IMG/VR virus record: IMGVR_UViG_3300025788_000001
Location: 3,074 to 67,073 of that record
From: a virus
DNA length: 64,000 nucleotides
Direction: 5' to 3' (one strand)
Part shown: piece by piece, positions 3,880 to 58,521 of the stretch
Numbering within the stretch: the stretch's first letter is position 1
How the letters are laid out: each line of letters starts with the position of its first letter
The notes under the pieces: generated by a model
Database searches by the model: none
What the model was told of the DNA's origin: nothing
The model's input: the letters and a program-made list of their open reading frames with translations, nothing else
Translations under genes and position numbers: made by a program

Positions 3880-4054
3880 ACCACACCCCCATCTTGCCAT
3901 TCTTGCGCCCTATCTCTGCCTTGGCTTGTACTCGGTGGTAAAGGGCGGCTTTTAAACCGTTAACCCTTACCTCCTCAAACTTTAATGTAGGAACAAAGAA
4001 GCCCCCTTGTGCGGGGACTTCTAACCACGGAAAATGCACTTTAATCTTCCTCAC
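3863..4054 (-). CDS. Hypothetical protein
   Basis: 63-aa ORF coupled to the primase-helicase; its stop overlaps the convergent gene. Confidence 0.6.
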   Translation of the reverse strand: MRKIKVHFPWLEVPAQGGFFVPTLKFEEVRVNGLKAALYHRVQAKAEIGRKNGKMGVWFTRVR

Positions 4055-6899
4055 TTATCACCAGCGGCCGTGTAATTCTCATTACATTGACTCGCATCGA
4101 TGGGCCGCGTGTCTTAGCCAGCATGTCTTTGCGCATGTACGCTATCTTGTAATTAGGTAGTGTTTCAAGCTCCTTCTTCAAGTCAGAGTATCCATAACTC
4201 ATAGTAGAGCAGTGTTGTTTAAGCAGTTGCTCCTCAATGAAGTAGTCAACGTGCCCCGGGGTCATATCATGCTCAACCCTTCCAGCCACATCTGACCTAG
4301 TTAGCGACTGGTCAATTTCATTATGCCCCCCTAGCGTTGCTTTCGTAATACCGTCAATAGCTTTAACCACAACGAATTTACCGTAGCACTCACGGGTGTA
4401 GGCGTTAAGAACATCTTCAGCGGAACGGCGGTTGCCTCGTACTGCGGCTCTAGCTTCATTAACCATACCGCGAAGGGTTTCTATAATAGGACGAATAGGT
4501 ACATCAATAATGCCTGCATATTTTTTGCTCATTAGAATCACTATAGCTACGATGGCGGCATTACCAGCAGTCCAATAACGCTCGTCATCTGATGAATTAA
4601 ATTCCGCTTTTAACTTCTCGCGGGTCTCTTCAAAAACCTTAACTGCGGTTTCTCTGTTCCTGACAATCCAACGAATCAATTCACGACCTACGACACCGTA
4701 GTTAGACTTTAGGAGATCAACAGTACTACTCTCTGTTGACGACGCCCATTGAACTTCCTTGGCAGGCTTGACTTCCAGCATACGGAGCATTTCAGCTTGG
4801 GATGTATGCTTGCGCCCACCCGATAAGAAGTCGTAAATATGAGTGTTGCTTGAAAACAACACCATCAAGTTCCATACAGTTGTGTTCAAACGTTCCTTAT
4901 TGGCGCCTTGTTCCATGCGCTCTTTGCCTTTACCTTGGGTTAAATCCAGTAGGAACTGGGGCAACCACTCAAATGACTCCCGATTTTTGTTTGTAATCTC
5001 GTCCATTACAAGCGGGAGGCTGTTTAATAAGCCCTGTCTTTGCTGTGCGGCTACGGCTGAAGTTGATTGCGTGACCCTGTAGAGCTCTGGATGACCCCAA
5101 AAACTAGCTGCAAGGGCTAAGGCAAGCGATTTACCACGACCTGAACCCGAAGATCCGAGGTGATAAACAACGCCTCTAAAGCCTGAGAAATGCATCAGGA
5201 TGGAAGCAGGCCCCACCATACCCATAGTAACAATCTCCCACAGCTCCTTGGCAATGTACATATTGAGTACTTTCTTCCACTCATCCAGCGTGCCCATAGG
5301 TTTAGTAGCGTAGTTAACGTTAGCCATACCAGGGGTCGGGACATATAGTTCCTTGCCATCAGGGGAGAAGATGGTGCTGTCGTAAACAAACGAATTGTCC
5401 TCTTGCCAGCCGCAGCTATGAGGAACCTTGACCGCCACCTTATTAGAACTGGCGTATTCCACACAACCACGGATGTACTCGTATAGGTGGACATCATTGC
5501 CCTTGCCGTAGACTGCGATTATATTGTGGCTAGCTAGCATCTTCACAGTCTCATCCTTACTTACTGCCGATTTTTGAGGCATTATGATATCTGAGGTGTG
5601 GGTAGGGCGGCAAACAATCATATGAATCAAATGCTCATCGCCATTATCTAGGATATCAACCACAAACAAATCGTAAGGCAGGATCATTACCTGCTTCTTG
5701 ACCTTTTCTCCGCCTTCTTCTTCAATTACCTTGTCGATAAAGATGCCCCCATTAGCCCCATAGCTAAATCCGCGGGGTGGAATTGGGCGCACAATCATTA
5801 ACTGCTCGGCAGGTTTGTCTGCTGTAGCCGCCTTGGTTTCTACTATGATTTCCTTGGGCTTATTGTCGACCTTAATTTCACGTCCCAATGCTAGCGGGTT
5901 AGTAATCTTACCGAAGTGTGGGCAACCTTTACATAAACCTGGGTTTGCCTCGTCAAGCTTTAAGCAACTGTAAGGGCCTTTGATTTGGTGCCACTTGGTA
6001 TTGTGTCGATCCATATCGTAGGGGTGCATGGCGGATAGGGCTTGACCTTCTTCCTCGCCATCTTCGCAGTACTTAGCTATGCTGAGGATACCCCGCCACA
6101 AAGGTTCCATGCCGTCATCTTTAGCATGTTCAATGTAATGGTTTATCTGTTTGCATTTGGGCGCCAAAGTTTTAAAGAACGTGATGCTGTTCTCAACTAT
6201 CTTGACGTTTGATGCAGAACCTTTTAAATCTGGACGCTTGCCTGGTAAATCAAATTTAGGTAGCATTTCATGGGAGTCTTCCCCTACTTTTTCCCTGATG
6301 ACCGTAGACAGTTGTGTAAAGTCAAACGTTACACCGACCACCTTGATGGCAACAGACCGCGGCTTTTCCTGCTTATAGTTTTGTGTATCAGGTACACGTA
6401 GTACTCGAGCTGCATCGCCAGTAACCATGGCGTCAATCCGCAGGCCTTCTTTCTTACAAAGGCGCTTGAGATTTTCTGCTACTGGTTTCCATGCGGATAT
6501 ATCTACTTCGTCAAAAAACGGCCAGTATACGTGCAATCCGCCACCACTAGATACGACGTATGGGGTGCCCAACTGGTCTAACGAAGTTGAAGACAAAAAG
6601 CTACCCAATGCTGCTGCTGCTGCCTGCTTATTAGGATAATCCTTTCCTTCACCACAATCAATATCCAAGAATAAAGATTTTATTTTTAATGCGTTTGTGG
6701 CTAATCGCTTGCCACTTGTGTTGAATGATGCTAAGGCGTAGAAAGCGTTTAAACCTTCTCCACTAAAGTGTGTAGCGTTGCTATACAGTTCATCAATCGT
6801 GTCAACAAAGACATGTTCTTTTTTAGCTGTGCTAAGTTCGCAGGCGCAATATTTACCCGAAGACGGAAGCACAGTCGCTAGGAATTCCTGCGACTTCAT
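4041..6899 (-). CDS. Primase-helicase (AEP-like N-terminus, DUF927-like region, P-loop helicase)
   Basis: LDIDCG and SSGGGLHVYW primase motifs, Cys cluster (C..CKGC), Walker A GSSGSGRGKS, Walker B LVMDE. Confidence 0.85.
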   Translation of the reverse strand: MKSQEFLATVLPSSGKYCACELSTAKKEHVFVDTIDELYSNATHFSGEGLNAFYALASFNTSGKRLATNALKIKSLFLDIDCGEGKDYPNKQAAAAALGSFLSSTSLDQLGTPYVVSSGGGLHVYWPFFDEVDISAWKPVAENLKRLCKKEGLRIDAMVTGDAARVLRVPDTQNYKQEKPRSVAIKVVGVTFDFTQLSTVIREKVGEDSHEMLPKFDLPGKRPDLKGSASNVKIVENSITFFKTLAPKCKQINHYIEHAKDDGMEPLWRGILSIAKYCEDGEEEGQALSAMHPYDMDRHNTKWHQIKGPYSCLKLDEANPGLCKGCPHFGKITNPLALGREIKVDNKPKEIIVETKAATADKPAEQLMIVRPIPPRGFSYGANGGIFIDKVIEEEGGEKVKKQVMILPYDLFVVDILDNGDEHLIHMIVCRPTHTSDIIMPQKSAVSKDETVKMLASHNIIAVYGKGNDVHLYEYIRGCVEYASSNKVAVKVPHSCGWQEDNSFVYDSTIFSPDGKELYVPTPGMANVNYATKPMGTLDEWKKVLNMYIAKELWEIVTMGMVGPASILMHFSGFRGVVYHLGSSGSGRGKSLALALAASFWGHPELYRVTQSTSAVAAQQRQGLLNSLPLVMDEITNKNRESFEWLPQFLLDLTQGKGKERMEQGANKERLNTTVWNLMVLFSSNTHIYDFLSGGRKHTSQAEMLRMLEVKPAKEVQWASSTESSTVDLLKSNYGVVGRELIRWIVRNRETAVKVFEETREKLKAEFNSSDDERYWTAGNAAIVAIVILMSKKYAGIIDVPIRPIIETLRGMVNEARAAVRGNRRSAEDVLNAYTRECYGKFVVVKAIDGITKATLGGHNEIDQSLTRSDVAGRVEHDMTPGHVDYFIEEQLLKQHCSTMSYGYSDLKKELETLPNYKIAYMRKDMLAKTRGPSMRVNVMRITRPLVISEED

Positions 6900-6913
6900 A
6901 AATGCTCCTTGGG

Positions 6914-7069
6914 TTAACCGTTAATGCGTTGATTGAATCTTTTTAGTACTTCCTTTTGAAAACTTAACGGCATGCCAGTATCAAGGTAGCGTTCTGCAAA
7001 GCTAATTAGTTCTTTGTCGGTTAAGGCAGTTGGCGATATTGCCGATTCTTTTATTTGTTCTGCTTGCAT
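6914..7069 (-). CDS. Small hypothetical protein (51 aa, not in ORF track)
   Basis: Hand translation MQAEQIKESAISPTALTDKELISFAERYLDTG...; fills the gap in the operon. Confidence 0.55.
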   Translation of the reverse strand: MQAEQIKESAISPTALTDKELISFAERYLDTGMPLSFQKEVLKRFNQRING

Positions 7070-7317
7070 TTTTTCATTGCCTCTTCAACAGTACTGCTTG
7101 TTTGTAATATGCGTAACAGGTTGGTCACGCTCGTTCTGTACGATGGAGTAACTTCGGTTCCAGCGAACCAGTTATAAACCGTCTGTCTTGTTGCGCCTGT
7201 GTATTGCGAAATCTGAATTACAGGTAAATTTAATTTAATAGCCCATCGACCTAACTGATTGCCTAGAGTCTTCTCCGCCTTAGCGGTGGACTGCCTTATT
7301 GTTTCTGAGTAAGCCAT
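7051..7317 (-). CDS. Cro/XRE-like HTH DNA-binding protein
   Basis: VIQISQYTGATRQTVYNWFAG helix-turn-helix. Confidence 0.7.
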   Translation of the reverse strand: MAYSETIRQSTAKAEKTLGNQLGRWAIKLNLPVIQISQYTGATRQTVYNWFAGTEVTPSYRTSVTNLLRILQTSSTVEEAMKKCKQNK

Positions 7318-24216: not shown

Positions 24217-25692
24217 TTACACTTCAGCTAATTGTTCTTTCTTCTCGAAACGTGGGTTAGCTTTAACGATTGCTGATTTATCTAGCATGAATCCCTTAGA
24301 CTGCAAGAATGACCGTAGATTGATTGTGTCCTTGCGGTTGTCAGGCTGGCAAATAAACTTGAGGAAGTTATCCGTAGTTAAGTCTTGTTGCCCTGTATCA
24401 CGACTAAAGAACCAAGCCATGTAAGTAAACTCAAGACAAGACATGATGGTCTCATAGCGTAGCGTGCCCTTAAACAAGCGGAACTCAATAGTTCTCTCGG
24501 GCTGGAAGTTAACCGACTCATACCGATCCTCATTCAAGCGTTGCATACCATTACGCTTGCCGTGCTTGAGCCATGCATAGTCGGCTGTCTTGTTCTTAAC
24601 CTGTGAATAGCGGTTGCCATCTCGTCTTGCTATGGTACGAAAGAGTCGCTGGTTTCTACTATCGTGCATGAACAGGATTAACTTTGCCGCATGAAACATA
24701 CTCATACCCTTCTTGCAAATGTGAACATGAAGCCCACAAGTCTTGGTATCGTGCGACTTAACATCAGCCCATCTACGCTTAAAGAACTCTAACTGCTTGG
24801 CATGAACATCTAACCCTGTGTAGCCAGTCACCATCTCAAAGCCGTGGCTAAGAGACCCATCGTCTTCTAAGAAACAATAGTTGTGCCCTTCAGGCGTAAC
24901 ACCGATAGCCTCGAACAACTCCTCAGCCTTAGCCTCTCGGTCGCAACCATCGCCGACCTCCATCTCAAGCTCAAGCCCCATGTAGATCTTAGTCTCTCGC
25001 TTGGAGAACTCAGTTGGGATAAGACCTAGCTTACGCTTACTACTATGATAACCCCCGATGAAGCGGCTTTCTTCTTCCTCCTCCTCATCGTCTTCGATGT
25101 CAGGCTCTTCATCATCTTCATGCACCACGCTATCATGGTAGTCTGACCAACGATAGCTATTCTCCCTACAACTAGAGCACACCCATCTGTCGCCGTTATA
25201 CACCCAAGAGCCATCGTCTTCTGCTTCTATGTACTCGCAGTCAGAGCAAACCTCATATGTAGGTGCGTCGGGGAATTTATCCGAATCGTTAATCATTTCG
25301 CACCAATCGCTACTACCTGCCATATCCCTAATGTCAGGGTTGTCATTAAGCATACAAACTAACTCACTATCGTCTTGAGTTCTAAAACACTCCCTAGCCC
25401 TCACTCCGAAGTCGTATAGAGCACGCTTGCGAGTCATAAGCGAGACATAACTTGTTACTGAAAACCGATTGAGTCGGTTGCCGTGCCATTGTTGTGTTAC
25501 TAAGAGGTTGTTCTTGATAGTGTGCCTACTATGATCTACTGCTTCCGCCATAGTCCATGCGTGTGGTCTTTCCATGTGATTCAACTTCATGCTGAGGAAT
25601 GTCCGCAACACGTCATGCTTACCATCGGGCAGGCTTGCTTTGCGAAGACGGACTGCTTCTACCTGTGCAACTGTATATGTAACTGTTGGCAT
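24217..25692 (-). CDS. Putative amidoligase (COOH-NH2 ligase) with Zn ribbon
   Basis: GLELEME, EDDGSL, GFEMV, CGLHVH, RY.SVN, TIEFRLF; CSDC..CSSC. Confidence 0.85.
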   Translation of the reverse strand: MPTVTYTVAQVEAVRLRKASLPDGKHDVLRTFLSMKLNHMERPHAWTMAEAVDHSRHTIKNNLLVTQQWHGNRLNRFSVTSYVSLMTRKRALYDFGVRARECFRTQDDSELVCMLNDNPDIRDMAGSSDWCEMINDSDKFPDAPTYEVCSDCEYIEAEDDGSWVYNGDRWVCSSCRENSYRWSDYHDSVVHEDDEEPDIEDDEEEEEESRFIGGYHSSKRKLGLIPTEFSKRETKIYMGLELEMEVGDGCDREAKAEELFEAIGVTPEGHNYCFLEDDGSLSHGFEMVTGYTGLDVHAKQLEFFKRRWADVKSHDTKTCGLHVHICKKGMSMFHAAKLILFMHDSRNQRLFRTIARRDGNRYSQVKNKTADYAWLKHGKRNGMQRLNEDRYESVNFQPERTIEFRLFKGTLRYETIMSCLEFTYMAWFFSRDTGQQDLTTDNFLKFICQPDNRKDTINLRSFLQSKGFMLDKSAIVKANPRFEKKEQLAEV

Positions 25693-25847
25693 AACTGTAT
25701 TTCCTTTCGTTTGTGTAATAACTGATGACCGAAGTCATTGGACAGAAACCTGTCCCAATCTATTTAATAATCAAACCTACTACATACCTAACTACCTGCG
25801 CCCCTATGAATAAACTACAAAACAACAGGGCGATCCTGCTATACAAA

Positions 25848-31698: not shown

Positions 31699-31934
31699 TG
31701 TTTAAATTCATAAAGCGGTGGTGGAAAGTTAAAAAAATGTCCCGCGCTATCTGGCGTCAGGTTAAAATCGAGCAAACTTGTACTTTTATGTATGTAGCTG
31801 AACCTGTTGAGCGCGTACACGAGTGCTTAAAAGAATTTGGGCTTACGGATAAAGATATGCAGGCAAAATGTATGTCGTCTTTACCACCAGCGCGAAACAA
31901 TAATGTAATTAAGGAAGACATAACATGCCAGTAG
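31698..31934 (+). CDS. Hypothetical protein
   Basis: Coupled ORF between terL and portal. Confidence 0.45.
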   Translation: MFKFIKRWWKVKKMSRAIWRQVKIEQTCTFMYVAEPVERVHECLKEFGLTDKDMQAKCMSSLPPARNNNVIKEDITCQ

Positions 31935-34432: not shown

Positions 34433-34638
34433 TGGATCTACTAACGGCTGATTTCATAGCCGCAATGCGTGACAAGTTGCGCACAGATATGAATAACTAC
34501 ACTGACGATTTGGCAAACGGGCAGTGTACAAGTTTTGAGCAGTACAGAGAGCTCTGCGGTGTAATTCGAGGCCTAGCATTTGCAGAGCGCCATTTATTCG
34601 ACCTCGCTGACAATATGAAAGAAGACAACGATGAGTGA
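34429..34638 (+). CDS. Hypothetical protein
   Basis: YRELCGVIRGL; AGGAG RBS. Confidence 0.65.
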   Translation: MMDLLTADFIAAMRDKLRTDMNNYTDDLANGQCTSFEQYRELCGVIRGLAFAERHLFDLADNMKEDNDE

Positions 34639-35095
34639 AACCATCGCTTTGCCCCCACAAGGGTTTGTATTACCGGATGGCAGTATGCATTCGCTTGACG
34701 CAGTAGACGTAGAAGTAAATGAAGTAGCTGAGCCAACACCCGAAGAAATCCAGGTGCAAATGGCCCGCCAGCTACCTGAACCACGTGGTTGGAGAATGCT
34801 GTGTTCGCTGGTTACAGCCACAGACCAATACGATAGCGGCATTGTTAAGGCTGATGAGACTAAGAAGATTGAGGAGCTAACTTCCCCAGTTTTATTTGTT
34901 TTGAAGCTAGGCGATCTAGCCTATAAAGATGAAGCTAAATTTCCAACAGGTGCTTGGTGTAAAGAGGGTGATTTTGTTATTACCCGCCCTTATACAGGTA
35001 CTAGGATCATGATTTACGGAAAAGAGTTTCGTGTTATTTATGACGACCAAGTAGAAGCAGTTGTCGAGGACCCGAGGGGGATCGCGCGTGCGTAA
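34631..35095 (+). CDS. groES: GroES-like co-chaperonin
   Basis: PRGWRML, SGIV mobile loop, KEGDFV, YTGT, FRVIYDDQVEAVV. Confidence 0.8.
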   Translation: MSETIALPPQGFVLPDGSMHSLDAVDVEVNEVAEPTPEEIQVQMARQLPEPRGWRMLCSLVTATDQYDSGIVKADETKKIEELTSPVLFVLKLGDLAYKDEAKFPTGAWCKEGDFVITRPYTGTRIMIYGKEFRVIYDDQVEAVVEDPRGIARA

Positions 35096-37692: not shown

Positions 37693-38604
37693 ATGGCTAT
37701 TTCACGTTCACAGCTCTTAAAAGAGTTACTCCCAGGACTAAACGCGTTGTTCGGTTTAGAGTACAAGCGCTATGGCGAAGAGCATAAAGAAATTTATGAC
37801 ATCGAAGCCTCTGAGCGTTCATTTGAAGAAGAGACAAAACTGTCTGGTTTCTCGGCTGCTCCAGTCAAGAACGAAGGCGGTGCAATTTCTTACGATAATG
37901 CACAAGAAGCTTTTACAGCTCGCTACTCACACGAAACTATCGCTTTGGGTTTCTCAATCACTGAAGAAGCGATTGAAGATAACTTGTATGACTCATTGTC
38001 TGCTCGTTACACCAAAGCATTGGCTCGCGCTATGTCTTACACCAAGCAAGTTAAAGGTGCTTCTGTATTGAATAACGGTTTCTCATCTAGCTACCTCGGT
38101 GGCGATGGCGTTGCATTGTTCTCTACAGCTCATCCATTGGTAAACGGTGGTACAAACAGCAATACTGTTGCTACCCCTGTTGATTTGAACGAGACTTCTT
38201 TGGAAGCCGCAACAATTCAAATCGCTGCCTGGACTGATGAGCGCGGTCTCTTGATCGCTGCTAAGCCACGCAAACTGGTGATCCCACCTGCTTTGATGTT
38301 CGTTGCTACTCGTCTGTTGGAAACTAACCTCCGTGTTGGTACAAACAACAACGATATCAATGCATTGAAAAACAATGGCACAATCCCAGAAGGCTACGCT
38401 GTTAACCACTTCTTGACCGATACAAACGCATGGTTTATTTTGACCGACGTTCCAAACGGCCTGAAAATGTTTGAGCGTACACCACTCCAGAATTCTATGG
38501 ATGGTGACTTCGATACTGGTAACGTTCGTTACAAGTCTCGTGAGCGTTACAGCTTCGGTTGGTCCGATCCCCTCGGAGCATGGGGCTCAAGCGGTTCATT
38601 CTAA
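37693..38604 (+). CDS. Major capsid protein
   Basis: 303 aa, K.EGG.I.YD, GDG..LFS..HP; codon use suggesting high expression; followed by a terminator. Confidence 0.85.
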   Translation: MAISRSQLLKELLPGLNALFGLEYKRYGEEHKEIYDIEASERSFEEETKLSGFSAAPVKNEGGAISYDNAQEAFTARYSHETIALGFSITEEAIEDNLYDSLSARYTKALARAMSYTKQVKGASVLNNGFSSSYLGGDGVALFSTAHPLVNGGTNSNTVATPVDLNETSLEAATIQIAAWTDERGLLIAAKPRKLVIPPALMFVATRLLETNLRVGTNNNDINALKNNGTIPEGYAVNHFLTDTNAWFILTDVPNGLKMFERTPLQNSMDGDFDTGNVRYKSRERYSFGWSDPLGAWGSSGSF

Positions 38605-49606: not shown

Positions 49607-50041
49607 ATGACAATCGAATTCACAACAACAATCACCTCAATGGAGGCTTATCCTCTTTACGAAGCAGTACCCTTGTATGTTTTTAGAGTTTACTGGAATT
49701 ATGAAGGTAAAGACGATACAGGCGTAGGTACTGCTATGCAAGGCTCTACCGACATTCCAGCAAGTGACCCACAATCAGCTATTCCTTACGCTGACTTAAC
49801 GCAAGAACAAGTCATGGGATGGGTTCAGACCTACACACCAGCATGGATGTGGGCAGAATACACAGACAAGATTAGTGCGTGGATTGTGGCTCAGTACACA
49901 CCAGCAGTTGTTAATCCTCCATTGCCTTGGGCTGCTCCTCCAGTAGTTGAGCCTATTATTGAGTCTGTAGTTGAGCCTATTATTGAGCCTGTAGTTAAGC
50001 CTATTATTGAGCCTGTAGTTGATACTATTGCACCTGCATAA
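49607..50041 (+). CDS. Tail fibre-associated protein
   Basis: IPYADLTQEQVMGWVQ..PPLPW, then VEPII repeats. Confidence 0.6.
   Translation: MTIEFTTTITSMEAYPLYEAVPLYVFRVYWNYEGKDDTGVGTAMQGSTDIPASDPQSAIPYADLTQEQVMGWVQTYTPAWMWAEYTDKISAWIVAQYTPAVVNPPLPWAAPPVVEPIIESVVEPIIEPVVKPIIEPVVDTIAPA
49943..50022 (+). repeat. 24-bp tandem repeat, about 3.3 copies (VVEPIIEP)
   Basis: GTAGTTGAGCCTATTATTGAGYCT units. Confidence 0.85.
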
Positions 50042-50766
50042 TGTTTGGGTTTAATGCTTTTGCACGAGCGCCTTTTAATACACTAGGCAATAGCCTATAC
50101 CCGCTTACGCTCGCAGAAAACCTAAACTCGGATGATTCAAGTACCCAAGTATCTACTTTTCTAAGCGTAATTACTGAGGCTATATCACAAGTCCTAGATA
50201 TTCAAAGCGAACAAGATAACTTCTTTGAGGGCATAGTAGAAGGGTTTAACCAAGCGGACTCGAGCTCTCAGCTTTTTGCATTCCTACAATCTTTAACTGA
50301 GAATTTGAACCCAGCTAATACGCAAATTATTACTGCACAGTTCTCCACAGCCCTAACCGAAGCCTTAAACTCCGCTGACGTAGTAACTATTTTTGCCCAA
50401 TTCTTAACGGCGATTACAGAAAATCTAGCTCCTACTGACTTAATAAGCATCGCTGCTCAGTTTCCTCTGGCTCTTTCCGAGAATTTAAACCCCGCCGACG
50501 TGGTTGCTATAACCGCTCAGTTCGCTGCCACAGTAGCAGAAAACCTTAGTCCAGCTGATTCCAGCACCCAGATATCAAGGTTCCTAGAGTCTATTGCTGA
50601 GAACGTAGGGGTTCTAGATTTGTTAATTGCCCGTGGATGGGTTAAAATCAATGATAATCAGACCATAACATGGAATGCGGCGAACAATGCAAATTCAGCA
50701 ACTTGGGTTAATATTGGTGATGACCAGAATCCAAATTGGGTAGTAATAAATAATACGCAGTTATAA
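50041..50766 (+). CDS. Structural protein with ~22-aa repeats
   Basis: Repeated ENL.PAD....AQF units; Trp-repeat C-terminus. Confidence 0.6.
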   Translation: MFGFNAFARAPFNTLGNSLYPLTLAENLNSDDSSTQVSTFLSVITEAISQVLDIQSEQDNFFEGIVEGFNQADSSSQLFAFLQSLTENLNPANTQIITAQFSTALTEALNSADVVTIFAQFLTAITENLAPTDLISIAAQFPLALSENLNPADVVAITAQFAATVAENLSPADSSTQISRFLESIAENVGVLDLLIARGWVKINDNQTITWNAANNANSATWVNIGDDQNPNWVVINNTQL

Positions 50767-50776
50767 AGGATAATTA

Positions 50777-52384
50777 ATGTCAAGTACATACTCAACTTCA
50801 CTGCTCTTAGAGCTTATCGGTAACGGAGATCAATCCGGTACTTGGGGGTCTACAACCAACAATAACCTAGGCAACTTGATTGAACAGGCTATTACTGGGG
50901 TACAAACCGTTAACTTTGCAACTGACGCAAACCGCACCCTAACTAACTTTAACGGAGCGCTGGATGAGGCACGTAATGCTGTTCTTGTAATCACTACATC
51001 CGTTTCATTAACTGGCACCCGCCAAGTTGTAGCCCCGCTGGTAAATAAACAATATGTGGTCTATAACAATACAGGATACACAATTACCTTTGGGGGTACT
51101 TCTGGTGGTGTAGTTACTATTCCAAACGGCATGGTTACTGCGGTTTATTGCGATAGCACAAACTTTGTTGCCGGTATTAACGGTGTTCCAGGAAACTGGA
51201 CGGTAAACGGTAACTCTACAATTAACGGCAACGAAACAGTAAAAGGCAATATTGCAGCTAGCTCTGCTGTTTTTGTGGGTTCTATTTCAGGCACAACCCT
51301 TACTGTTACTTCTGTTACCTCGGGAACTATCGCTACTGGCCAGTATCTTAATGGTTTGGGTGTAACTCCTGGAACAACAATTTCTAGTGGTAGCGGAAGC
51401 AGCTGGGTTATAACCCCATCCCAAACTGTATCTAGTACAACAATTACTGCAAATGGTATTGTTAATGCTGGCGCTTTTGTTGGTGACGGTACATACTTAA
51501 CTGGTACAGCTCCTAACTTAAACATTGGCGGAAACGCAGCAACTGCAACTTTTGCCACTTCTGCCGGAACTACTTCTAACTTTACTGGTGTTGCTAACCC
51601 ACCAAGCGGCGGTACTGGTTTAACCAGCGTGCCTTTAAACTACTTGGTTTCTGGTAATACTACTTACCCATTTAATACTGTTGCTCCTGGTACAGCCGGT
51701 AACGTTCCACTTTCTACAACGTATGGCGCGGCTACTTTTGTGGCTGGTATTGCTGCAGGTACGATGACCGTAGCTTCTATTTCTTCTGGCACATTAACTG
51801 AAGGCGCTACTATTGCCGGTACTGGAGTTACAGGCGGCACAACAATTAACCAGCTAACTTCTGCTGGCTCAGCAGCTGCAACAAAAACATACGTAAGCGG
51901 CGGTGCAGTTGGAGCAAATACAATTACGCTAAACTCAGTTACATCAGTAGTAGTTGGCCAATTAGTTATTGGTACAGGCGTTCCTAACAGTACGTTTGTT
52001 CAGTCTATTTTTGGTTCACAAATTACTTTATCTAAAAACCTAACTGTCCAAGCTGCTGGTACATATAACTTCTACACACCGGGCGGTGTAGGTACTTACC
52101 AAACAACCCCAACCCAAACTGTATCATCTGGAACAACTATTACTGCTACAAATGGCACATACTTTACTAGCCAGCCATTAAACTGGGATAACGTAGCAGG
52201 TAAACCAACTAACATAAGTTACTGGACAAATGATTCGCATTATATGAATGAAGCTACTGGAGGTGGTAGTGCGTATGGAAACGCAAACCCAGCCGTTACA
52301 AGTGTATACTTGTCCAGGTCCGGTATTACAGCTGTTTTATCTGTTGGCACACAATGCAACTGTAACTGCGCCTGCGACTGCTAA
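50777..52384 (+). CDS. Tail fibre/spike protein with C-terminal CNCNCACDC
   Basis: LELI..G.QSGTWG.TTN.NL N-terminus, T/G-rich domains, Cys-rich terminus at 52355-52381. Confidence 0.75.
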   Translation: MSSTYSTSLLLELIGNGDQSGTWGSTTNNNLGNLIEQAITGVQTVNFATDANRTLTNFNGALDEARNAVLVITTSVSLTGTRQVVAPLVNKQYVVYNNTGYTITFGGTSGGVVTIPNGMVTAVYCDSTNFVAGINGVPGNWTVNGNSTINGNETVKGNIAASSAVFVGSISGTTLTVTSVTSGTIATGQYLNGLGVTPGTTISSGSGSSWVITPSQTVSSTTITANGIVNAGAFVGDGTYLTGTAPNLNIGGNAATATFATSAGTTSNFTGVANPPSGGTGLTSVPLNYLVSGNTTYPFNTVAPGTAGNVPLSTTYGAATFVAGIAAGTMTVASISSGTLTEGATIAGTGVTGGTTINQLTSAGSAAATKTYVSGGAVGANTITLNSVTSVVVGQLVIGTGVPNSTFVQSIFGSQITLSKNLTVQAAGTYNFYTPGGVGTYQTTPTQTVSSGTTITATNGTYFTSQPLNWDNVAGKPTNISYWTNDSHYMNEATGGGSAYGNANPAVTSVYLSRSGITAVLSVGTQCNCNCACDC

Positions 52385-52393
52385 GGAAAAATT

Positions 52394-53149
52394 ATGAACT
52401 TATATACGCTACAAAATACTAATCCTATATCAGTTTCCGCTGTTGATGTAACTCGTGCTGATAATACTATTACGTTTGCGGTTACAACAACAAACACTGC
52501 TGATAAAAACCCAAGAGTAGATACTTTTACGTTAGACTATAATTTGTTATCAGCCCGTTCAGATTTTGACGATAGCACACAATGGATTATCGGGTATAAC
52601 CCAGAATATGCACCCCAAGGTGGCGGCCCTCTATTTATTATCTACAACACCTTTAAAGAAACATTCCCAACTAAAGGAAAAAGTGGTACTTTTACAGCAA
52701 GACGTGACGGCGTAAATATTATTTTTTCTTTGTATGTGCCGTTTAAAAATTCGTCATTAGATGAATGTTCTTTACTAGTAGTTAGTGAAGACATCACAAA
52801 GATAACAGCGGATTCATCTTTCTCCGCCCCAATCGTGGTAACTGATAGACTTAGCATTCGCCCTTTAGTAATGCCTTCTGTTCGCGCTGTATCTGTTACA
52901 CCTATTGGCCAAGATTTAGATGTCGTGCTCCAATTGTGTAAAAATGGGCAAGATATAAGTAATATTGCAACCCTTTACATTTCATGTGATACTGGCTCTT
53001 TGTCTTCTTCAGTTATTAAAACAAATGGTAATGGGCAGGCAACCCTGCGTATCTATGGTGACCCACACCGTGCCGGAGAAGCTGGTGTATTAAACGTTGG
53101 CTTCAAGTATTGGAGCGGCGAGCTTTACGTAAATTACATAGCCCCTTAA
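52394..53149 (+). CDS. Hypothetical protein, possible Ig-like C-terminus; candidate rSAM partner
   Basis: Lies between the Cys-tailed fibre and the rSAM gene; KTNGNGQATL resembles Big-type Ig domains. Confidence 0.55.
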   Translation: MNLYTLQNTNPISVSAVDVTRADNTITFAVTTTNTADKNPRVDTFTLDYNLLSARSDFDDSTQWIIGYNPEYAPQGGGPLFIIYNTFKETFPTKGKSGTFTARRDGVNIIFSLYVPFKNSSLDECSLLVVSEDITKITADSSFSAPIVVTDRLSIRPLVMPSVRAVSVTPIGQDLDVVLQLCKNGQDISNIATLYISCDTGSLSSSVIKTNGNGQATLRIYGDPHRAGEAGVLNVGFKYWSGELYVNYIAP

Positions 53150-53172
53150 AAGAAATTACAAAAAACCACATC

Positions 53173-54561
53173 ATGGCTAAATTTAAATTAGATTGTCTTG
53201 ACGCCCTTAAACCAGAAAAAAGAAAAACATTTTTGTATGACAATGCAACTTCGGAACTTCTAAATGAAGACGGCACTCCTTTTGACTTTGGTTTTATTGT
53301 TGTTGACCCAAAAAAATATAAAGATATAGCAACACCGAATAAAGATAATCCTATTGGAAAAAGCCGTAGACTAAAGCGACTTAAGATTCAGCTTGGTCTT
53401 TCTTGTAATTACGAGTGCTCATATTGTAGCCAGCGGTTTGTACCTAGGGCTGATGAAACTAACCCAGATGATATTGAACCATTTTTAACCCAGCTTCCTA
53501 CATGGTTTGATGGTGGAGAAGATGGCGATGGTAGCGGTGTACGTATAGAGTTTTGGGGCGGTGAACCTTTTGTATACTGGAAAACTTTTAAGCCTTTAGC
53601 TGAGCGCATTCGTCAGATGTACCCTAAAGCAGAATTTTTGGTTATAACTAATGGCTCTTTACTTGATCTAGAAAAAAATCAATGGGTAGATGACTTAGGT
53701 TTTATGGTAGGTATATCCCATGATGGTCCGGGATACCATGTTCGTGGTGAAGACCCGTTTGATAATCCCAAACAGTTTGCTGCTATTAAAGATTTATTTG
53801 ACCGTTTATACCCTAAAAACCGTATAAGTTTTAATGCCACATTAAATAAAGATAACCAAAGCCGTACCGCTATTGGCGAGTTTTTTGAACAACGTTTAGG
53901 GATTATGCCTGTTATTGGGGAAGGTAGCTTTGTTGACCCATATGATGAAGGGGGCGCAGCTTCTTGTTTTGATGACCCTGCTGATTTTTTATCCTATAGA
54001 AACAAGTACTTAGCTGAATTGCGAGACGGTGGGGTCCATAACTTTACTACAATTGCTAGTAAAATTACAGATTTTAAAGACTCTATTATTAATAACCGTC
54101 CAGCTTCTGCATTAGGGCAAAAGTGCTCTATGGATAAACGAGACCAACTAGCCGTAGATTTACATGGAAATGTGCTTACTTGTCAAAATGTATCGTCTGT
54201 AGCCATAAGTTCAAACGGTGAAAGCCATAAAATTGGGCACGTATCTGATTATGCTAATATCAAGCTTAATACAGTTACCCATTGGTCACATCGTAAAGAA
54301 TGCCCTAATTGCCCTGTGTTACAAATGTGCCAAGGTAGCTGTATGTTTTTACACGATAAGTTATGGGAATTAGGTTGTGATACGGCTTTTTCTGACAACG
54401 TTCCTTTATTTGCCGCGGCTATTGAAGCTATGACTGGGTATATTCCGTATTACATTGATGGTCCACAAAGAGATGACCGTAAAGATATATTTGGACTGGT
54501 GCACGGCATTCCAGAGCGTAAAGCTAAAAAGCCTTTTCCTATCCCTGTAGTATCAGCTTAA
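53173..54561 (+). CDS. Radical SAM enzyme with SPASM domain
   Basis: CNYECSYC, FWGGEP, ITNG, ISHDG; SPASM C..DLHGNVLTC..CPNCPVLQMCQGSC..C. Likely start MAKF at 53173. Confidence 0.9.
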   Translation: MAKFKLDCLDALKPEKRKTFLYDNATSELLNEDGTPFDFGFIVVDPKKYKDIATPNKDNPIGKSRRLKRLKIQLGLSCNYECSYCSQRFVPRADETNPDDIEPFLTQLPTWFDGGEDGDGSGVRIEFWGGEPFVYWKTFKPLAERIRQMYPKAEFLVITNGSLLDLEKNQWVDDLGFMVGISHDGPGYHVRGEDPFDNPKQFAAIKDLFDRLYPKNRISFNATLNKDNQSRTAIGEFFEQRLGIMPVIGEGSFVDPYDEGGAASCFDDPADFLSYRNKYLAELRDGGVHNFTTIASKITDFKDSIINNRPASALGQKCSMDKRDQLAVDLHGNVLTCQNVSSVAISSNGESHKIGHVSDYANIKLNTVTHWSHRKECPNCPVLQMCQGSCMFLHDKLWELGCDTAFSDNVPLFAAAIEAMTGYIPYYIDGPQRDDRKDIFGLVHGIPERKAKKPFPIPVVSA

Positions 54562-54570
54562 GGAGCTACG

Positions 54571-54783
54571 ATGTTTATTTTTAATTGGGTGTTTGACAAG
54601 TTAGGCTACATGCCTAAGATTGATATGGAAGTTGGCAAAGTGGATTTAAAACTGCAAGATATTTGGCCTTTCCCAGTTACTGAAGAAAAGAAAAAACCAC
54701 AGGTAAAAAAAGCCACTACTCGCACTGCTAAAAAGAAACCCGCTGTTGTAGCTAAAACTGTACGTAAGCTAAAAACAAAATGA
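54571..54783 (+). CDS. Small basic protein
   Basis: AGGAG RBS; WPFP then a K-rich tail. Confidence 0.6.
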   Translation: MFIFNWVFDKLGYMPKIDMEVGKVDLKLQDIWPFPVTEEKKKPQVKKATTRTAKKKPAVVAKTVRKLKTK

Positions 54784-55001
54784 AAGACTTTCTTAACCAG
54801 CTTCTTACTGGTAGGGATAACCATACGCAAGATATTGCACGGTGGAGTTGGTTAATTTGTTTACTTGCAGTGATTGCCTTAGCTAGTTATGAAGCAATGC
54901 ATGGTGCTGTTAGTCTACGAGAGTTAGCAGAAGCGTTTGGTATTGTTGCTGGTGCGCACGGGGCTGCGGTTATGATGAAAAAAGATGCGGAGCCTCAGTA
55001 A
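54780..55001 (+). CDS. Putative holin
   Basis: Two TM segments, upstream of spanin and endolysin. Confidence 0.6.
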   Translation: MKDFLNQLLTGRDNHTQDIARWSWLICLLAVIALASYEAMHGAVSLRELAEAFGIVAGAHGAAVMMKKDAEPQ

Positions 55002-55426
55002 TGTGGGGTTTTTTAGGTAACTATGCAAATATCGTCAAAGCTGGACTTATTGTTTCTGCTCTATGCTTGGTGTTTTTTGCTGGCTGGCATATGCGGGATA
55101 GGGATTTTACTATATACAAAACAGCAATCCAAGTCGCAGCAGAGAAACAGCAAGCGCAAACGGAGTCAATCCAAAAGCAACACGAACTTGTAACTAAAGG
55201 AATTTCTGATGAATACGAAGCTAAGTATGCTGCTCTTCGCAACTACTATAAGTCTACTAGCGTGTGGAACAACCCCAATAGCAGTACCATGTCCGGTATT
55301 TCCACAGCCCCCAAGTCAGCTGATGTTATCACCGCCTACAATGAGCTTGCTGGAAATTGCGCCCAAACCACGCTAATGCTAGTTGAATTACAAAAATGGC
55401 TTAACGAACAGATTGGTATTAAATGA
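55001..55426 (+). CDS. Rz-like spanin
   Basis: N-terminal TM, coiled coil, C-terminal C..LQKW. Confidence 0.6.
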   Translation: MWGFLGNYANIVKAGLIVSALCLVFFAGWHMRDRDFTIYKTAIQVAAEKQQAQTESIQKQHELVTKGISDEYEAKYAALRNYYKSTSVWNNPNSSTMSGISTAPKSADVITAYNELAGNCAQTTLMLVELQKWLNEQIGIK

Positions 55427-55944
55427 AAGACAATTTTGCAGATGCCCTAACAGCACTTTTAGTCCACGAAGGCGGTTACGCAAATAACCCCGCAGACCCG
55501 GGGGGTATGACAAACCTTGGAGTTACTGCCTCAACATGGGCTATGTGGGTAGGGCATGATGTAAACGAAAAGCAGATGCGCGCTCTAACGCCATCTATTG
55601 TTGCTCCTTTATATAGAAGGAAATTTTGGGATGCTTGCAGAGCTGATGAGCTTATATCTGGTCTTGACTACGCTGTTTTTGACTACGCTGTTAATTCCGG
55701 GGTCGGGCGTGCTATTAAGGCTTTGCAGAACTGCGTTGGGGTTGCTCCTGATGGTGGTTTTGGTACAACTACTATGGCTGCCGTGAGCCAGTTTAAGGGC
55801 GATGCGGCCAAGACTCTAATTGAAGAATACTGTGATAATCGGTTACAATTCCTAAAGTCCCTGAAGACTTTCCCTGTATTTGGTAAAGGTTGGGAAAAGC
55901 GGGTGAACGAAGTCAAAGCCATGTCACTTAAGATGCTAGGGTAA
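55423..55944 (+). CDS. Endolysin, glycoside hydrolase family 108 with PG-binding domain
   Basis: HEGGY.N.P.DPGG.TNLGVT; FDYAVNSG; FGKGW..RV. Confidence 0.9.
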   Translation: MKDNFADALTALLVHEGGYANNPADPGGMTNLGVTASTWAMWVGHDVNEKQMRALTPSIVAPLYRRKFWDACRADELISGLDYAVFDYAVNSGVGRAIKALQNCVGVAPDGGFGTTTMAAVSQFKGDAAKTLIEEYCDNRLQFLKSLKTFPVFGKGWEKRVNEVKAMSLKMLG

Positions 55945-55950
55945 ACCCGT

Positions 55951-58521
55951 ATGCCATTACAAAAACTACAATTTAGACCCGGACTTAACAGAGAAGGCAC
56001 TGATTACAGTAATGAAGGCGGGTGGTTTGACGGCGACAAGATTCGTTTCCGTTCTGGCTTTCCTGAAAAAATTGGTGGTTGGGCACGGTTATCTAGTAAT
56101 ACGTTTTTAGGTGTTTGTCGTGACTTATGGAATTGGGTAGATTTAGCGGGTAATAACTATGTTGGCGTTGGCACTAACCTTAAATACTATATCGAAGCTG
56201 GCGGTAATTATAACGACATTACTCCTTTTACAGTTATCCACACGCTTACTAACCCACTTTCAACTGTTAGTGGCAGCGCAACATTAACAATCACAGACTC
56301 TACTTACCAACCTAATATTGGCGATTATATTGTTATTTCAGGTGCTACTAGTTTTAACGGCGTTACTGCTACTACATTAAATAAAGAGTGGGTTATAGCG
56401 TCAATAACGTCAAATACCACATTTACAGTAACCCTTCCATATACTGCCTCTGGGACCGGTTCTGGCGGCGGTAGTGCTTGTGTAATTAGCTATGAGCTTC
56501 CTGTAGGTAATAACTCCTATACAACAGGTAACGGTTGGGGTGCAGGTTCTTGGTCACCTACAATTCCTCAAACATTAACAAACCCATTTTCTACAACTAG
56601 TGGTAGCGGTACTGTAACAGTTACACAGACTGGGCATGGTTATTTAACCACCGCTGGGTCATTTATAGTAGGGCAACAATACAAGATTGTTTCTGTTGGA
56701 ACTACCGATTTTATAGCTATTGGCGCTTCTGCTAATACAGTAGGCACTTTGTTTACGGCATCTGGTGTAGGTGCTGGCACGGGTACGGCTTCTATTGGTT
56801 GGGTAGCCTTTAGAGATATTACAGTTACTGTGGGTGGTGTTCCTACTGCATTGATGAACAATACATTCCAGATTACCTATGTTGATGCTAATACATATAC
56901 TATTAAAACCAACGGTAATACAGGTACTTTTTTAGCTACTTCTACTACGTCTGGTGTAGGTGGTTCTGTAACTTTATATCCCCAATATGGCGCTCGTGGT
57001 TGGAGTCAAGCGGCAGCTACATCTAGTGTTGGACAGCAGTTACGCTTATGGACTAGTGATAACTATGGCCAAGACCTTGTGTTAGCTCCACGTGGAAGCG
57101 GTATTTTCTATTGGCAAGATGCTAACGGTGTTGGTACTAGGGCGCAGCTTCTTAGCACCTTAGCTACATTTAAAGGCTATTTAGGTCAGTACGTTCCTAA
57201 CCAAACCAATCAAGTTCTTTCTTCTGCTATTCAGCGGTTTGTTATTGCTATGGGGGCTAACTCGTACCAATCTGGGTTATCGACCACTCCATTTAACCCA
57301 ATGCTTGTTCGTTGGTCTGACCAGCAAAATCCCTACCAATGGGTACCTGACATTACAAACCAATCGGGCGAATTTACTTTAACTAATGGCTCTTACATTG
57401 TTGGCGCACGTGCAACCCGCCAAGAGATTTTGATTTGGACTGATTCTGCTCTTTATTCTATGCAGTACTTAGGTGCTCCTTATGTTTGGGGCTTCCAGAT
57501 TTTGATGGATAACATTTCTGTTATATCTCCTGACGCTATGGTTACAGTTAACAACGTAACTTACTGGATGGGTCAAGAGAAGTTCTATATGTATTCTGGT
57601 CGTGTTGAAACACTTCCATGCTCCTTGCGTCAGTTTATTTTTGATGATATTAACCCAGCACAAAACTTCCAAGTATTTGCAGGTGCTAATGAAGGATATA
57701 ACGAAGTGTGGTGGTATTACGTAAGTAATGAGAGCGTTGATGGATTACCTGATAAGTACGTAATCTATAACTACTTAGACCGTGTTTGGTATTACGGCAC
57801 TATGGCTCGTTCTGCTTGGCTAGGTTCCGGTATTCAAACTTATCCGTTGGCTGCTAACTACCTAAATTCAGCTTCATTTAAAGGCTATATTTCTGGTTAC
57901 ACTTTGTATGTAACTAATATATCCTCGGGTAGTATTTCTCTGGATACAACTATTAGCGGTTCTGGGGTTACTGCGGGTACTACTATTGTTAGCTATGGCA
58001 CTGGTAATGGTGGCACGGGAACTTATAACTTAAGCACCGCCCAGACTGTTGGAACAATTACAGCCCCCATCACAATGACGTCAGCCGGTGGTTTTGGTTA
58101 CTTATTACAGCATGAAAACGGTGTAGACGATAACGCAGGTTTAACTACACGTCCAATTAACTCTTATGTACAATCTTCGGACTTTGATATTGGCGATGGA
58201 CACAATTTTGGATTTGTATGGCGTATTCTCCCTGACGTTAACTTTAATGGTTCTACTACTAACCAGCCGTCTGTAACAATGACGGTTAAGCCTAGAGAAA
58301 ACTCAGGTACTCCATATGGTACAGCGGATAACCCAGCCGTTACTAGTACGCAAAACTACACAAATACTAGGGTCTATAACGTACAACAGTTTGATGGTCA
58401 AGTTTATACCCGCCTTAGGGGTCGCCAGATGAGCTTTAGGATTGAGTCTGGTGGACAGACAGGTGTTACATGGCAGCTAGGTAGCCCACGTATTGATATA
58501 CGCCCTGACGGAAGAAGATAA
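55951..58521 (+). CDS. Tail nozzle/tubular protein (P22 gp10-like) with inserted beta domains
   Basis: PEKIGGW, VRWSDQ, EILIWTD, FYMYSG.V..LPC, EVWW; ends RPDGRR. Confidence 0.7.
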   Translation: MPLQKLQFRPGLNREGTDYSNEGGWFDGDKIRFRSGFPEKIGGWARLSSNTFLGVCRDLWNWVDLAGNNYVGVGTNLKYYIEAGGNYNDITPFTVIHTLTNPLSTVSGSATLTITDSTYQPNIGDYIVISGATSFNGVTATTLNKEWVIASITSNTTFTVTLPYTASGTGSGGGSACVISYELPVGNNSYTTGNGWGAGSWSPTIPQTLTNPFSTTSGSGTVTVTQTGHGYLTTAGSFIVGQQYKIVSVGTTDFIAIGASANTVGTLFTASGVGAGTGTASIGWVAFRDITVTVGGVPTALMNNTFQITYVDANTYTIKTNGNTGTFLATSTTSGVGGSVTLYPQYGARGWSQAAATSSVGQQLRLWTSDNYGQDLVLAPRGSGIFYWQDANGVGTRAQLLSTLATFKGYLGQYVPNQTNQVLSSAIQRFVIAMGANSYQSGLSTTPFNPMLVRWSDQQNPYQWVPDITNQSGEFTLTNGSYIVGARATRQEILIWTDSALYSMQYLGAPYVWGFQILMDNISVISPDAMVTVNNVTYWMGQEKFYMYSGRVETLPCSLRQFIFDDINPAQNFQVFAGANEGYNEVWWYYVSNESVDGLPDKYVIYNYLDRVWYYGTMARSAWLGSGIQTYPLAANYLNSASFKGYISGYTLYVTNISSGSISLDTTISGSGVTAGTTIVSYGTGNGGTGTYNLSTAQTVGTITAPITMTSAGGFGYLLQHENGVDDNAGLTTRPINSYVQSSDFDIGDGHNFGFVWRILPDVNFNGSTTNQPSVTMTVKPRENSGTPYGTADNPAVTSTQNYTNTRVYNVQQFDGQVYTRLRGRQMSFRIESGGQTGVTWQLGSPRIDIRPDGRR

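Follow-up and report, generated by a model that had tools for sequence, protein, structure and literature searches.

The 64,000-nucleotide stretch analysed here, called the window below (IMG/VR record IMGVR_UViG_3300025788_000001, positions 3,074 to 67,073), comes from a freshwater phage and spans most of a 67-kb virus record; freshwater metagenomes hold DNA near-identical to it. We describe a cassette of three consecutive genes on its plus strand, in which a tail fibre ending in alternating cysteines is followed by a middle gene and by a radical S-adenosylmethionine (rSAM) enzyme with a SPASM domain, and we consider the cysteine tract as a candidate substrate of that enzyme. The cassette comprises the following features:

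50777..52384, plus strand: tail fibre gene, 535 aa, with N-terminal anchor, shaft and C-terminal tract (phrog_31104, phrog_21413; tblastn)
52283..52354, plus strand: pre-tract module (...NPAVTSVYLSRSGITAVLSVGTQ), a strand, an SG turn and a strand according to the alignment
52355..52381, plus strand: (X-Cys)n tract CNCNCACDC, residues 527-535, with the stop codon directly after it; proposed rSAM substrate
52394..53149, plus strand: middle gene, 251 aa, with two beta-sandwich domains, the C-terminal one being Big_1/intimin-like, of immunoglobulin (Ig) type, and ending in ...VGFKYWSGELYVNY
53173..54561, plus strand: radical SAM/SPASM enzyme gene, 462 aa (phrog_1802, TIGR04085)
53404..53427, plus strand: C78-x3-C82-x2-C85, the radical SAM [4Fe-4S] motif, from alignment conservation
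54124..54378, plus strand: seven-Cys SPASM motif (C318, C337, C377, C380, C386, C390, C402), two auxiliary clusters predicted

A first-pass annotation made from the letters alone had reported a 535-aa fibre with a single Cys outside its tail and a terminal QCNCNCACDC at 52355-52381, followed tightly on the same strand by a 251-aa gene and by an rSAM enzyme with CxxxCxxC and a SPASM Cys set, and it was accurate on all these points. The fibre stop and the start of the middle gene are separated by 9 nt, and the middle-gene stop and the rSAM ATG by 23 nt; the listed open reading frame (ORF) of the enzyme opens at a TTG (53110), whereas homologs align from the ATG at 53173 (MAKF...). The cassette lies in the late structural module, with the terminase at 30166, the portal at 31925, the major head gene at 37693 and tail proteins, and a megablast search of window positions 50000-55500 against phage records gave no match.

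The fibre ends in GTQCNCNCACDC-stop (translation of 50777-52384), and no domain follows the tract, only the stop. Its six cysteines lie at positions 125, 527, 529, 531, 533 and 535, the last five of them in the terminal QCNCNCACDC, where TGC and TGT codons are mixed. As Cys makes up 0.97% of the residues (159/16360) across the 45 window ORFs of at least 150 aa, among which the fibre tract is the sole CxCxC, a chance origin of the tract is excluded; the chance of five Cys at five fixed alternate positions is about 9e-11. A second CxCxC ORF (25522-25725, 67 aa, CNCICNC) was rejected as spurious, lying antisense to a 491-aa gene on the minus strand (24217-25692). The protein is a probable fibre, as judged from the late-module position and on the anchor, in which residues 17-132 resemble the N-termini of tail fibres and spikes of aquatic phages and residues 14-132 share 32-41% identity with annotated tail fibre, tail spike and tail proteins (tblastn). 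A long shaft rich in Gly, Thr and Ser connects anchor and tract. Pfam and NCBIfam scans of the fibre matched nothing, and its relatives are annotated as collagen, S74 or T4 gp36-type proteins.

The enzyme matches phrog_1802, a family of radical SAM domain-containing proteins that carries no assigned function, over residues 44-429 (E 5.9e-61, 208 bits). It belongs to the radical SAM superfamily by its invariant CxxxCxxC motif and by an AlphaFold2 (AF2) model (pLDDT 83) that matches radical SAM structures, and it exceeds the cut-off of the NCBIfam SPASM model TIGR04085 (33.5 vs. 27 bits); in Pfam, Fer4_12 reached 22.3 bits (cut-off 22) and PF04055 stayed below its cut-off (24.2 vs. 29.5 bits). 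Three parts can be distinguished, namely a short N-terminal domain with a three-stranded beta-sheet, the radical SAM core and the SPASM domain, the last with the spacing C318-x13-G-x4-C337, C377-x2-C380-x5-C386-x3-C390 and C402. Neither these cysteines nor those of CxxxCxxC vary across an alignment of 21 homologs, and in a larger set of 129 sequences (the window and 128 representatives of the family) they are conserved to at least 98%. No eighth conserved Cys was found in the SPASM domain among the 129 sequences, and seven conserved Cys for the two predicted auxiliary clusters imply one open ligand site.

Linkage between the enzyme and the cysteine tract

Loci were fetched by homology to the rSAM enzyme (35 from IMG/VR and 80 from bacterial genomes), and same-strand ORFs with the pattern (C-[NDAQVTSG])n-C and at least one Asn were scored as tract genes. 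A locus was considered adequately sampled when its sequence reached 4.2 kb or more upstream of the rSAM gene (n = 80), and a tract-bearing ORF was present on the same strand in 25/25 of these loci from IMG/VR, 50/52 from bacterial genomes and 2/3 from phage records, the exceptions being L231, L238 and the Ralstonia phage RSP15. The shorter loci in which no tract was detected (6/10 from IMG/VR, 19/28 from genomes) are all cut off upstream, where syntenic relatives carry it. The median distance from the tract to the rSAM start was 938 nt in IMG/VR loci and 1586 nt in genome loci, and the tract gene lies either upstream or downstream of the enzyme (-3738 to +2497 nt). Among the exceptions, the L231 fibre agrees with that of L228 as far as ...LVDGGS and differs beyond it; both the tail and the middle gene are absent, and L231 is read as a deletion variant. 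By record title, the 80 bacterial-genome loci include 57 of Betaproteobacteria/Burkholderiales type and 17 from Limnohabitans; many of them are metagenome-assembled genomes (MAGs), in which binning may err. In isolated phages, tblastn detected rSAM homologs in RSP15 (48% identity), in the Achromobacter phages JWF and 2-1 (44%) and in RP12/RP31 (24%). JWF and 2-1 carry, two places upstream of the rSAM gene, a fibre-like gene with an internal CNCDCNC(NC)SC tract and a Hint domain directly after it.

The pairing was also approached from the opposite side by scanning viral contigs for DNA encoding CNCNCNC, which gave at least 120 stretches; 119 loci were analysed, 60 of them with both 2-kb flanks, and a match was taken as a real ORF when it stood near the C-terminus with at least 50 aa upstream of the tract. 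Among the listed matches with both flanks, 30 were real C-terminal tracts, of which 21 had an rSAM homolog in the flank, five had a middle-gene homolog only and four had neither, compared with no rSAM or middle-gene homolog next to any of the 29 junk-frame matches (Fisher p = 3.6e-9). Five of the nine loci with no rSAM homolog in the flank were searched contig-wide (L039, L048, L051, L064, and L097), and a homolog was found in all five, mostly at 1.4-3 kb from the tract, though the distance may be greater in L064. The remaining four are three near-duplicates of tested loci and L088, a low-complexity repeat in a giant-virus bin.

Thus, the co-occurrence that the first-pass annotation had proposed to look for holds in both directions (77/80 rSAM loci with a tract; 21/30 vs. 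0/29 in the reverse scan), and the opposite outcome that it had named, rSAM homologs occurring independently of Cys-tailed fibres, is confined to the three exceptions among 80 loci. Its suggestion that the substrate is a structural fibre protein and not a small peptide gains support from the same two results. In a tree of 114 rSAM sequences (mafft and FastTree, midpoint-rooted, support values not inspected) the pairing is present in every major clade, and it reaches beyond the close clade, since enzymes only 23-34% identical to that of the window are still linked to a tract (L055, L066, L091, L100, L101, and L081). Differences in gene order, in accessory genes and in the route by which the tract reaches the C-terminus leave the pairing intact, and the phages and prophages that carry it number in the hundreds. 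The enzyme family comprises at least 2925 clusters at 90% identity, counted as matches among 8000 scored candidates, and 515 clusters at 50% identity (E <= 1e-30).

Tract anatomy and accessory genes

From the rSAM-anchored loci came 90 distinct products with a tract, 69-616 aa long with a median of 311 aa, and the last tract in them holds 3-7 Cys, most commonly 4. The residue preceding a tract Cys is N in 286 cases, D in 47, A in 32, T in 6, V in 5, Q in 4, Y in 3, G in 2, S in 2 and F in 1, and since the first Cys, too, is preceded by Asn in almost every one of 80 distinct contexts, the repeating unit is properly N-C. Cys-rich relatives (e.g., L031, L032, and L036) also have single N-C dipeptides dispersed further upstream. 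In 81 of the 90 products the tract ends no more than 12 aa from the stop, followed by nothing or by a short C/G-rich end (C, CC, CGC, SGG). The nine internal tracts comprise four followed by Hint domains, one S74 product found at three loci, two products with an uncharacterised C-terminal extension (L035-38), a counting artefact in L031 and a junk ORF in L175. The Hint-type fibres are the following:

L003:5844-7295: JWF gp028
L002:5853-7295: Hint-type fibre
L227:3778-5307: Hint-type fibre
L222:3238-4368: Hint-type fibre

In these (JWF, 2-1, L222, and L227) the catalytic first Cys of the Hint domain is at the same time the last Cys of the tract; in JWF the domain (PF05203, 47.5 bits vs. a cut-off of 32.1) begins at C308. 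Hint autoprocessing would place the tract at a new C-terminus, possibly via a thioester. In L032-34 the tract is followed by a Peptidase_S74 self-cleaving chaperone domain, which in L032 begins after two residues (PF13884, 22.5 bits vs. 22). The gene in question (L032:5277-5954, also in L033 and L034) encodes 225 aa with 16 Cys, in which CNCDCNCDC-FW is followed by S74 and many N-C dipeptides lie upstream. Three devices (a stop, Hint and S74) thus bring the tract to the mature C-terminus.

The largest tract-bearing product, a 616-aa fibre (L215:2716-4566), contains collagen triple-helix repeats (146 bits), the only Pfam match obtained for 14 other tract-bearing proteins apart from sub-threshold CBM_5_12 (L215) and NHL (L014) hits. 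As collagen repeats and S74 domains mark trimeric fibres, the three fibre tails should lie together. Ahead of the tract, an xxG turn is found 6-26 aa upstream in 46/80 contexts, and a strand, a (D/N/S)G(G/S) turn and a second strand precede many tracts (e.g., ELIDNGSQIQLRSVRYNFN directly before CNC...; in the window, VTSVYLSRSGITAVLSVGTQ before CNC...). This element is a possible recognition element for the enzyme.

In related-strain contigs (X13 and X16), positions 52146-52310 (fibre residues ~457-511) are exchanged for 178 unrelated letters, and all that follows from 52310 on (pre-tract module, tract, middle gene and rSAM gene) keeps ~89% identity. Over 52310-54455 these contigs show ~11% differences and no tract indel was listed, a pattern that is not functional evidence. 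A variable distal fibre segment therefore adjoins a conserved tail module. The tract is a conserved terminal module and not obviously a specificity determinant, and a receptor-binding role is putative.

Some variants of the tract were also noted. In L091, two genes directly downstream of the rSAM gene (L091:1968-2681) encode a 99-aa protein with 13 Cys and a 134-aa protein with 20; the Cys lie in C-Q-x-x-type repeats (...CQSCQGCQTCQGCQ...), and the proteins end in ...CNCDCGDDGG. A (CSY)n run stands ahead of the tract in L187, L200, and L243, and L055 and L066 encode small proteins with HxH motifs (...HTHIFFDDYSTACNCNC), with or without a (CN)n tail.

The middle protein was modelled as two beta-sandwich domains (AF2 pLDDT 82, predicted TM-score 0.80), whose best structural matches are the Ig-like domains of intimin (Foldseek, intimin D0-D1, E 6e-6); an Atlas search points to Big_1, as leads only. 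It had no Pfam or NCBIfam match and tblastn against phage records found none. Homologs were detected in 59 of 92 non-truncated loci (tblastn, E < 1e-5), a search that divergent versions could escape, and a role as constant third partner was rejected given the 33/92 loci in which none was found; the middle gene is an Ig-like accessory of the cassette. The adaptor or chaperone role suggested for it in the first-pass annotation is neither strengthened nor weakened by these findings. JWF has an unrelated-looking 240-aa protein in the position of the middle gene. A predicted complex of the last 100 aa of the fibre with the middle protein scored 0.00, which speaks neither way.

A second accessory consists of 2-oxoglutarate (2OG)-Fe(II) oxygenase genes, one to several per locus, detected in 42/114 loci (tblastn) and absent from the window. 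In the loci examined in detail they lie between the fibre and the rSAM gene, and PF13759 or PF13640 exceeded its cut-off in all five examples tested with Pfam. One to four paralogous oxygenases stand between the Ig-like gene(s) and the rSAM gene at L009:4112-5957, L019:3783-6001, L170:817-1503, and L242:548-1829. Their presence suggests extra tailoring in the phages that carry them, e.g., hydroxylation of tract residues.

Beyond the cassette, a GH108 endolysin gene (55423-55944) is followed by a gene for an 856-aa virion structural protein (55951-58521; phrog_3287, E 1e-66, with a tail-fibre-like segment). Since a structural gene thus follows the lysis genes, the structural module encloses the lysis cassette. 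Between the portal and head genes, a 154-aa ORF (34631-35095) matches phrog_3188, co-chaperonin GroES (E 5.8e-9).

Candidate chemistry and its rivals

The analysis establishes that the genes are linked, that the enzyme has the cofactor motifs, that the tract is terminal and that its setting is that of trimeric fibres; we regard the tract as very probably modified by the enzyme. We lean, with some reserve, towards tract and SPASM enzyme being a substrate-enzyme pair that forms thioether links at fibre tips, a module carried in the late operon of many phages and prophages. The thioether product itself, taken separately, is favoured to a similarly modest degree, on account of the seven-Cys SPASM domain with its predicted open site and of the acceptor-like residue profile of the tracts. 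In sacti- and ranthisynthases the open auxiliary-cluster site is bound by a substrate Cys, and the auxiliary clusters of anSME, the anaerobic sulfatase-maturating enzyme, SuiB and PqqE have a full set of ligands, as given in the accessible part of PMC8326336. The ranthipeptide enzyme NxxcB natively uses Asn as acceptor and tolerates Ala, Gln and Asp (PMC9389541, accessible part), a range that the tract profile matches (Asn far ahead of Asp and Ala, then Thr, Val and Gln), and Gly, which has no C-beta, is nearly excluded before tract cysteines (2 cases).

The proposed course of events would be set late in infection, in a reducing cytoplasm where disulfides cannot form. The enzyme would bind the exposed C-terminal tract, a tract Cys thiolate would ligate the open site of an auxiliary [4Fe-4S] cluster, and the 5'-deoxyadenosyl radical would abstract hydrogen from a carbon of an adjoining Asn, Asp or Ala, so that a C-S thioether could form and the cycle be repeated along the tract. 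The trimeric fibre would thereby end distally in a polycyclic knot that is rigid and redox-inert, formed within or between chains, with the Ig-like middle protein and, in other phages, the 2OG-Fe(II) oxygenases as optional accessories. That the thioethers run between chains is doubtful, and it is similarly tentative to suppose that the rSAM enzyme, often together with the oxygenases, staples the three fibre chains distally through an inter-chain thioether knot. Such a knot would be a cytoplasm-compatible substitute for a cystine knot, and the (N-C)n tail, together with the strand-turn-strand element that leads into it, would serve as a portable tag, transferable from one fibre scaffold to another. 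We infer that the phage would benefit from modification of the tract.

Several points weigh against a thioether-forming enzyme-substrate pair. The modification itself is deduced from gene linkage, and part of the co-occurrence reflects shared descent of the module, because 84 tract-stripped bodies fell into four single-linkage BLAST clusters with 71 of them in one; the idea of a tract riding on many unrelated protein families was accordingly only partly borne out. In RSP15 the 'side tail fiber' three genes upstream of the rSAM gene ends in ...NCQCGN, a C-x-C remnant only. The enzymes of RP12 (24% identity) have no tract, and three rSAM genes stand there beside a Cys-free small protein. L238 (Sulfuritalea MAG, 1542-7302) encodes a 44% identical enzyme with no Cys-rich ORF before the contig end; it is the deepest branch of the rSAM tree and the only non-phage relative, with an ABC transporter and an HlyD-like gene and no phage genes around it, and may represent a bacterial ancestor or offshoot of the type that makes RiPPs (peptides synthesized by the ribosome and modified after translation). 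Runs of Cys-X-Cys are classic metal-thiolate ligands, so the tract could bind metal regardless of the enzyme. The adjacent N-C/C-N spacing is unlike that of characterised ranthipeptide motifs, such as Cys23-Asn20 in NxxcA and Cys32-Thr34 in CteA, in the parts of the sources available to us. The AF2 model contains no canonical (winged-helix) RiPP recognition element (RRE), its N-terminus being a three-stranded sheet with no helices, and a non-canonical recognition domain could still be present. The top PDB sequence match of the enzyme (3e-9) is TigE, a cyclopropylglycine synthase that forms C-C bonds (PMC10878394, accessible part).

Scores against the NCBIfam equivalog models point in the same direction, every one of them lying far under its cut-off. 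The window enzyme reached 56.6 vs. 340 bits for PapB (NF047865, PapB-type ranthipeptide maturases), 39.2 vs. 349 for anSME (TIGR03942), 34.4 vs. 453 for QhpD (TIGR03906, over residues 66-187 of the radical SAM core only) and 24.4 vs. 425 for CteB/SCIFF (TIGR03974). It may work like PapB but is no member of NF047865. The leading NCBIfam matches are nonetheless maturases of thioether or Cys-rich peptides (PapB 2.3e-15, CcpM 3.9e-13), and the closest solved structures in Foldseek are CteB (5why/5wgg, E 1.6e-11) followed by anSME (E 4e-10, TM ~0.5-0.6), ChlB, TigE, and SuiB. With homology scores so far below the equivalog cut-offs, the enzyme can be placed among peptide- and protein-modifying SPASM enzymes, its reaction not being fixed by homology. 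It also departs from the general description of a RiPP system, a short leader-bearing precursor and an RRE, as its candidate substrates measure 69-616 aa.

A different chemistry on the same tract by the same enzyme is a somewhat unlikely alternative that still deserves weight; the products would be formylglycine, an adjacent-residue sactionine (C-alpha, with thiomorpholine-like rings), C-C links or another change of Cys. The structural closeness of anSME, which acts on whole proteins with no RRE, would fit the missing canonical RRE here, TigE offers the C-C precedent already mentioned, and TqqB joins adjacent residues into a backbone ring (PMC9389541, accessible part). For formylglycine, these points are countered by the seven conserved Cys of the window family, compared with the full Cys ligation of the anSME auxiliary clusters in the part of the source seen, and by the absence from all tracts of the anSME target motif, C/S-x-P/A-x-R; an oxidation of Cys only would fit poorly with the preference for Asn, Asp or Ala beside every Cys, which suggests a two-residue reaction. 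We consider it improbable that the tract serves to bind metal or an Fe-S cluster, or forms a disulfide knot, and that the rSAM enzyme merely co-travels, acting on another virion protein or on a small molecule. Analogies for such a site exist in the HxH iron sites at T4-type fibre tips and in the collagen cystine knot. The metal-thiolate character of Cys-X-Cys runs would fit it, as would the HxH motifs beside or in place of the tract (L055, L066, and RP12 ORF074, which ends in ...SHTHY and has no Cys), the many tracts finishing in CC, CGC or CCC and the largely shared ancestry of the tract proteins, by which the linkage could be partly inherited. A mere fellow traveller is harder to reconcile with tract and rSAM gene being the only constants of the cassette, when the middle gene and the oxygenases come and go, with a pairing that persists across the rSAM tree despite varied gene order and fibre bodies, and with the compact loci L078, L081, and L092, in which tract genes directly adjoin the rSAM gene and other ORFs are present but no middle homolog was detected.

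Small tract genes (67-130 aa) could alternatively be long-leader RiPP precursors whose core leaves as a diffusible peptide (e.g., with an interfering or signalling function), and we rate this as very improbable for the tract genes. The tandem arrangement at L009, L014, and L029, where three tract-ending genes of 81-119 aa accompany a single enzyme at each locus, resembles multi-precursor clusters; the NCBIfam matches include nif11-like and Cys-rich peptide maturases, and the L238 enzyme has transporter and HlyD-like genes next to it. Set against this are the size of the products, with their tail-fibre anchors, collagen repeats and S74/Hint domains, and a motif of the small L029 protein (...ISAFTNDSGY...) that resembles one of the window fibre (...ISYWTNDSHY...); moreover, the ORF lists and the handful of family scans inspected, which covered parts of these loci and were no systematic search, showed no protease or exporter.

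A further arrangement was observed in Ralstonia phage RP12 (L246, ORF074-ORF080), where three radical SAM genes follow one another within a virion structural region and adjoin ORF074, which encodes 126 aa with no Cys and ends in ...IRSHTHYSPDGSY; the small HxH proteins of L055 and L066 are related. The arrangement may be a sister system that acts on His-rich tails.

Known systems and significance

Comparable reactions are known from SPASM enzymes that use Cys as donor and Asn or Asp as acceptor, namely PapB (freyrasin, Cys-Asp C-beta thioethers) and NxxcB (NxxcA, a Cys23-Asn20 C-beta thioether). Their substrates are short leader-bearing peptides, as opposed to fibre proteins of 80-616 aa here, and their spacing differs from the strictly alternating N-C of the tracts; the system described here lies in a phage late operon, with no canonical RRE in the model. 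CteB and other SCIFF maturases, the top Foldseek neighbours, are likewise thioether-forming SPASM enzymes with Cys-rich substrates, although CteB is only 15% identical in sequence to the window enzyme. An RRE forms the N-terminal part of CteB, whose substrate is a peptide of 45 residues. The close structural neighbour anSME shares the SPASM fold and the action on Cys of full-length proteins, and the JWF rSAM homolog was once annotated as an anaerobic sulfatase-maturating enzyme; anSME differs in oxidizing its target to formylglycine, in a target motif absent here and in fully Cys-ligated auxiliary clusters, as far as the available part of the source goes. By analogy, the closest known case in which a protein, and not a peptide, is structurally cross-linked is that of QhpD acting on QhpC, the gamma subunit of quinohemoprotein amine dehydrogenase, in which Cys-Asp and Cys-Glu thioethers are formed in a protein subunit of a larger assembly (PMC8326336, accessible part). 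QhpC is a subunit of a bacterial enzyme, not a virion component, and has another Cys arrangement.

Other locks of fibre tips and virions share the apparent purpose of stabilising or registering a trimeric or repetitive structure at its end, and S74 domains and collagen repeats occur in the tract-bearing fibres themselves. Known examples are HxH iron sites, S74 chaperones, the C-terminal cystine knot of collagen and the isopeptide chainmail of HK97. They differ in being autocatalytic or metal-mediated, and to our knowledge none of them uses a dedicated phage-encoded radical enzyme. A full-text literature search, with most subscription journals outside its coverage, found no paper linking radical SAM enzymes to phage fibre Cys tracts, and in databases the homologs go either by a generic name ('radical SAM domain-containing protein') or by one taken from another enzyme ('anaerobic sulfatase-maturating enzyme'). 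The enzyme class itself has been described, so far chiefly in the synthesis of peptide antibiotics; the virion-fibre substrate class and the (N-C)n motif at the mature C-terminus are undescribed.

If the tract is modified, virion structural proteins would become the second large class of natural substrates for the SPASM peptide maturases, and the territory of RiPP genome mining would be widened, the family being large. A short C-terminal tag and a single enzyme could then install redox-inert cross-links at protein C-termini, and the finding would bear on the engineering of robust receptor-binding proteins; cultured carriers exist in the Achromobacter phages JWF and 2-1, and the minimal system consists of two genes. 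Were the three chains of a fibre indeed joined to each other, a virion appendage would for the first time be seen to contain a covalent cross-link installed by an enzyme, and a RiPP-type maturase would for the first time have full-size viral structural proteins as natural substrates. For the phages themselves, a modified tract would represent a new means of stabilising fibre tips, with a bearing on particle stability in oxic freshwater.

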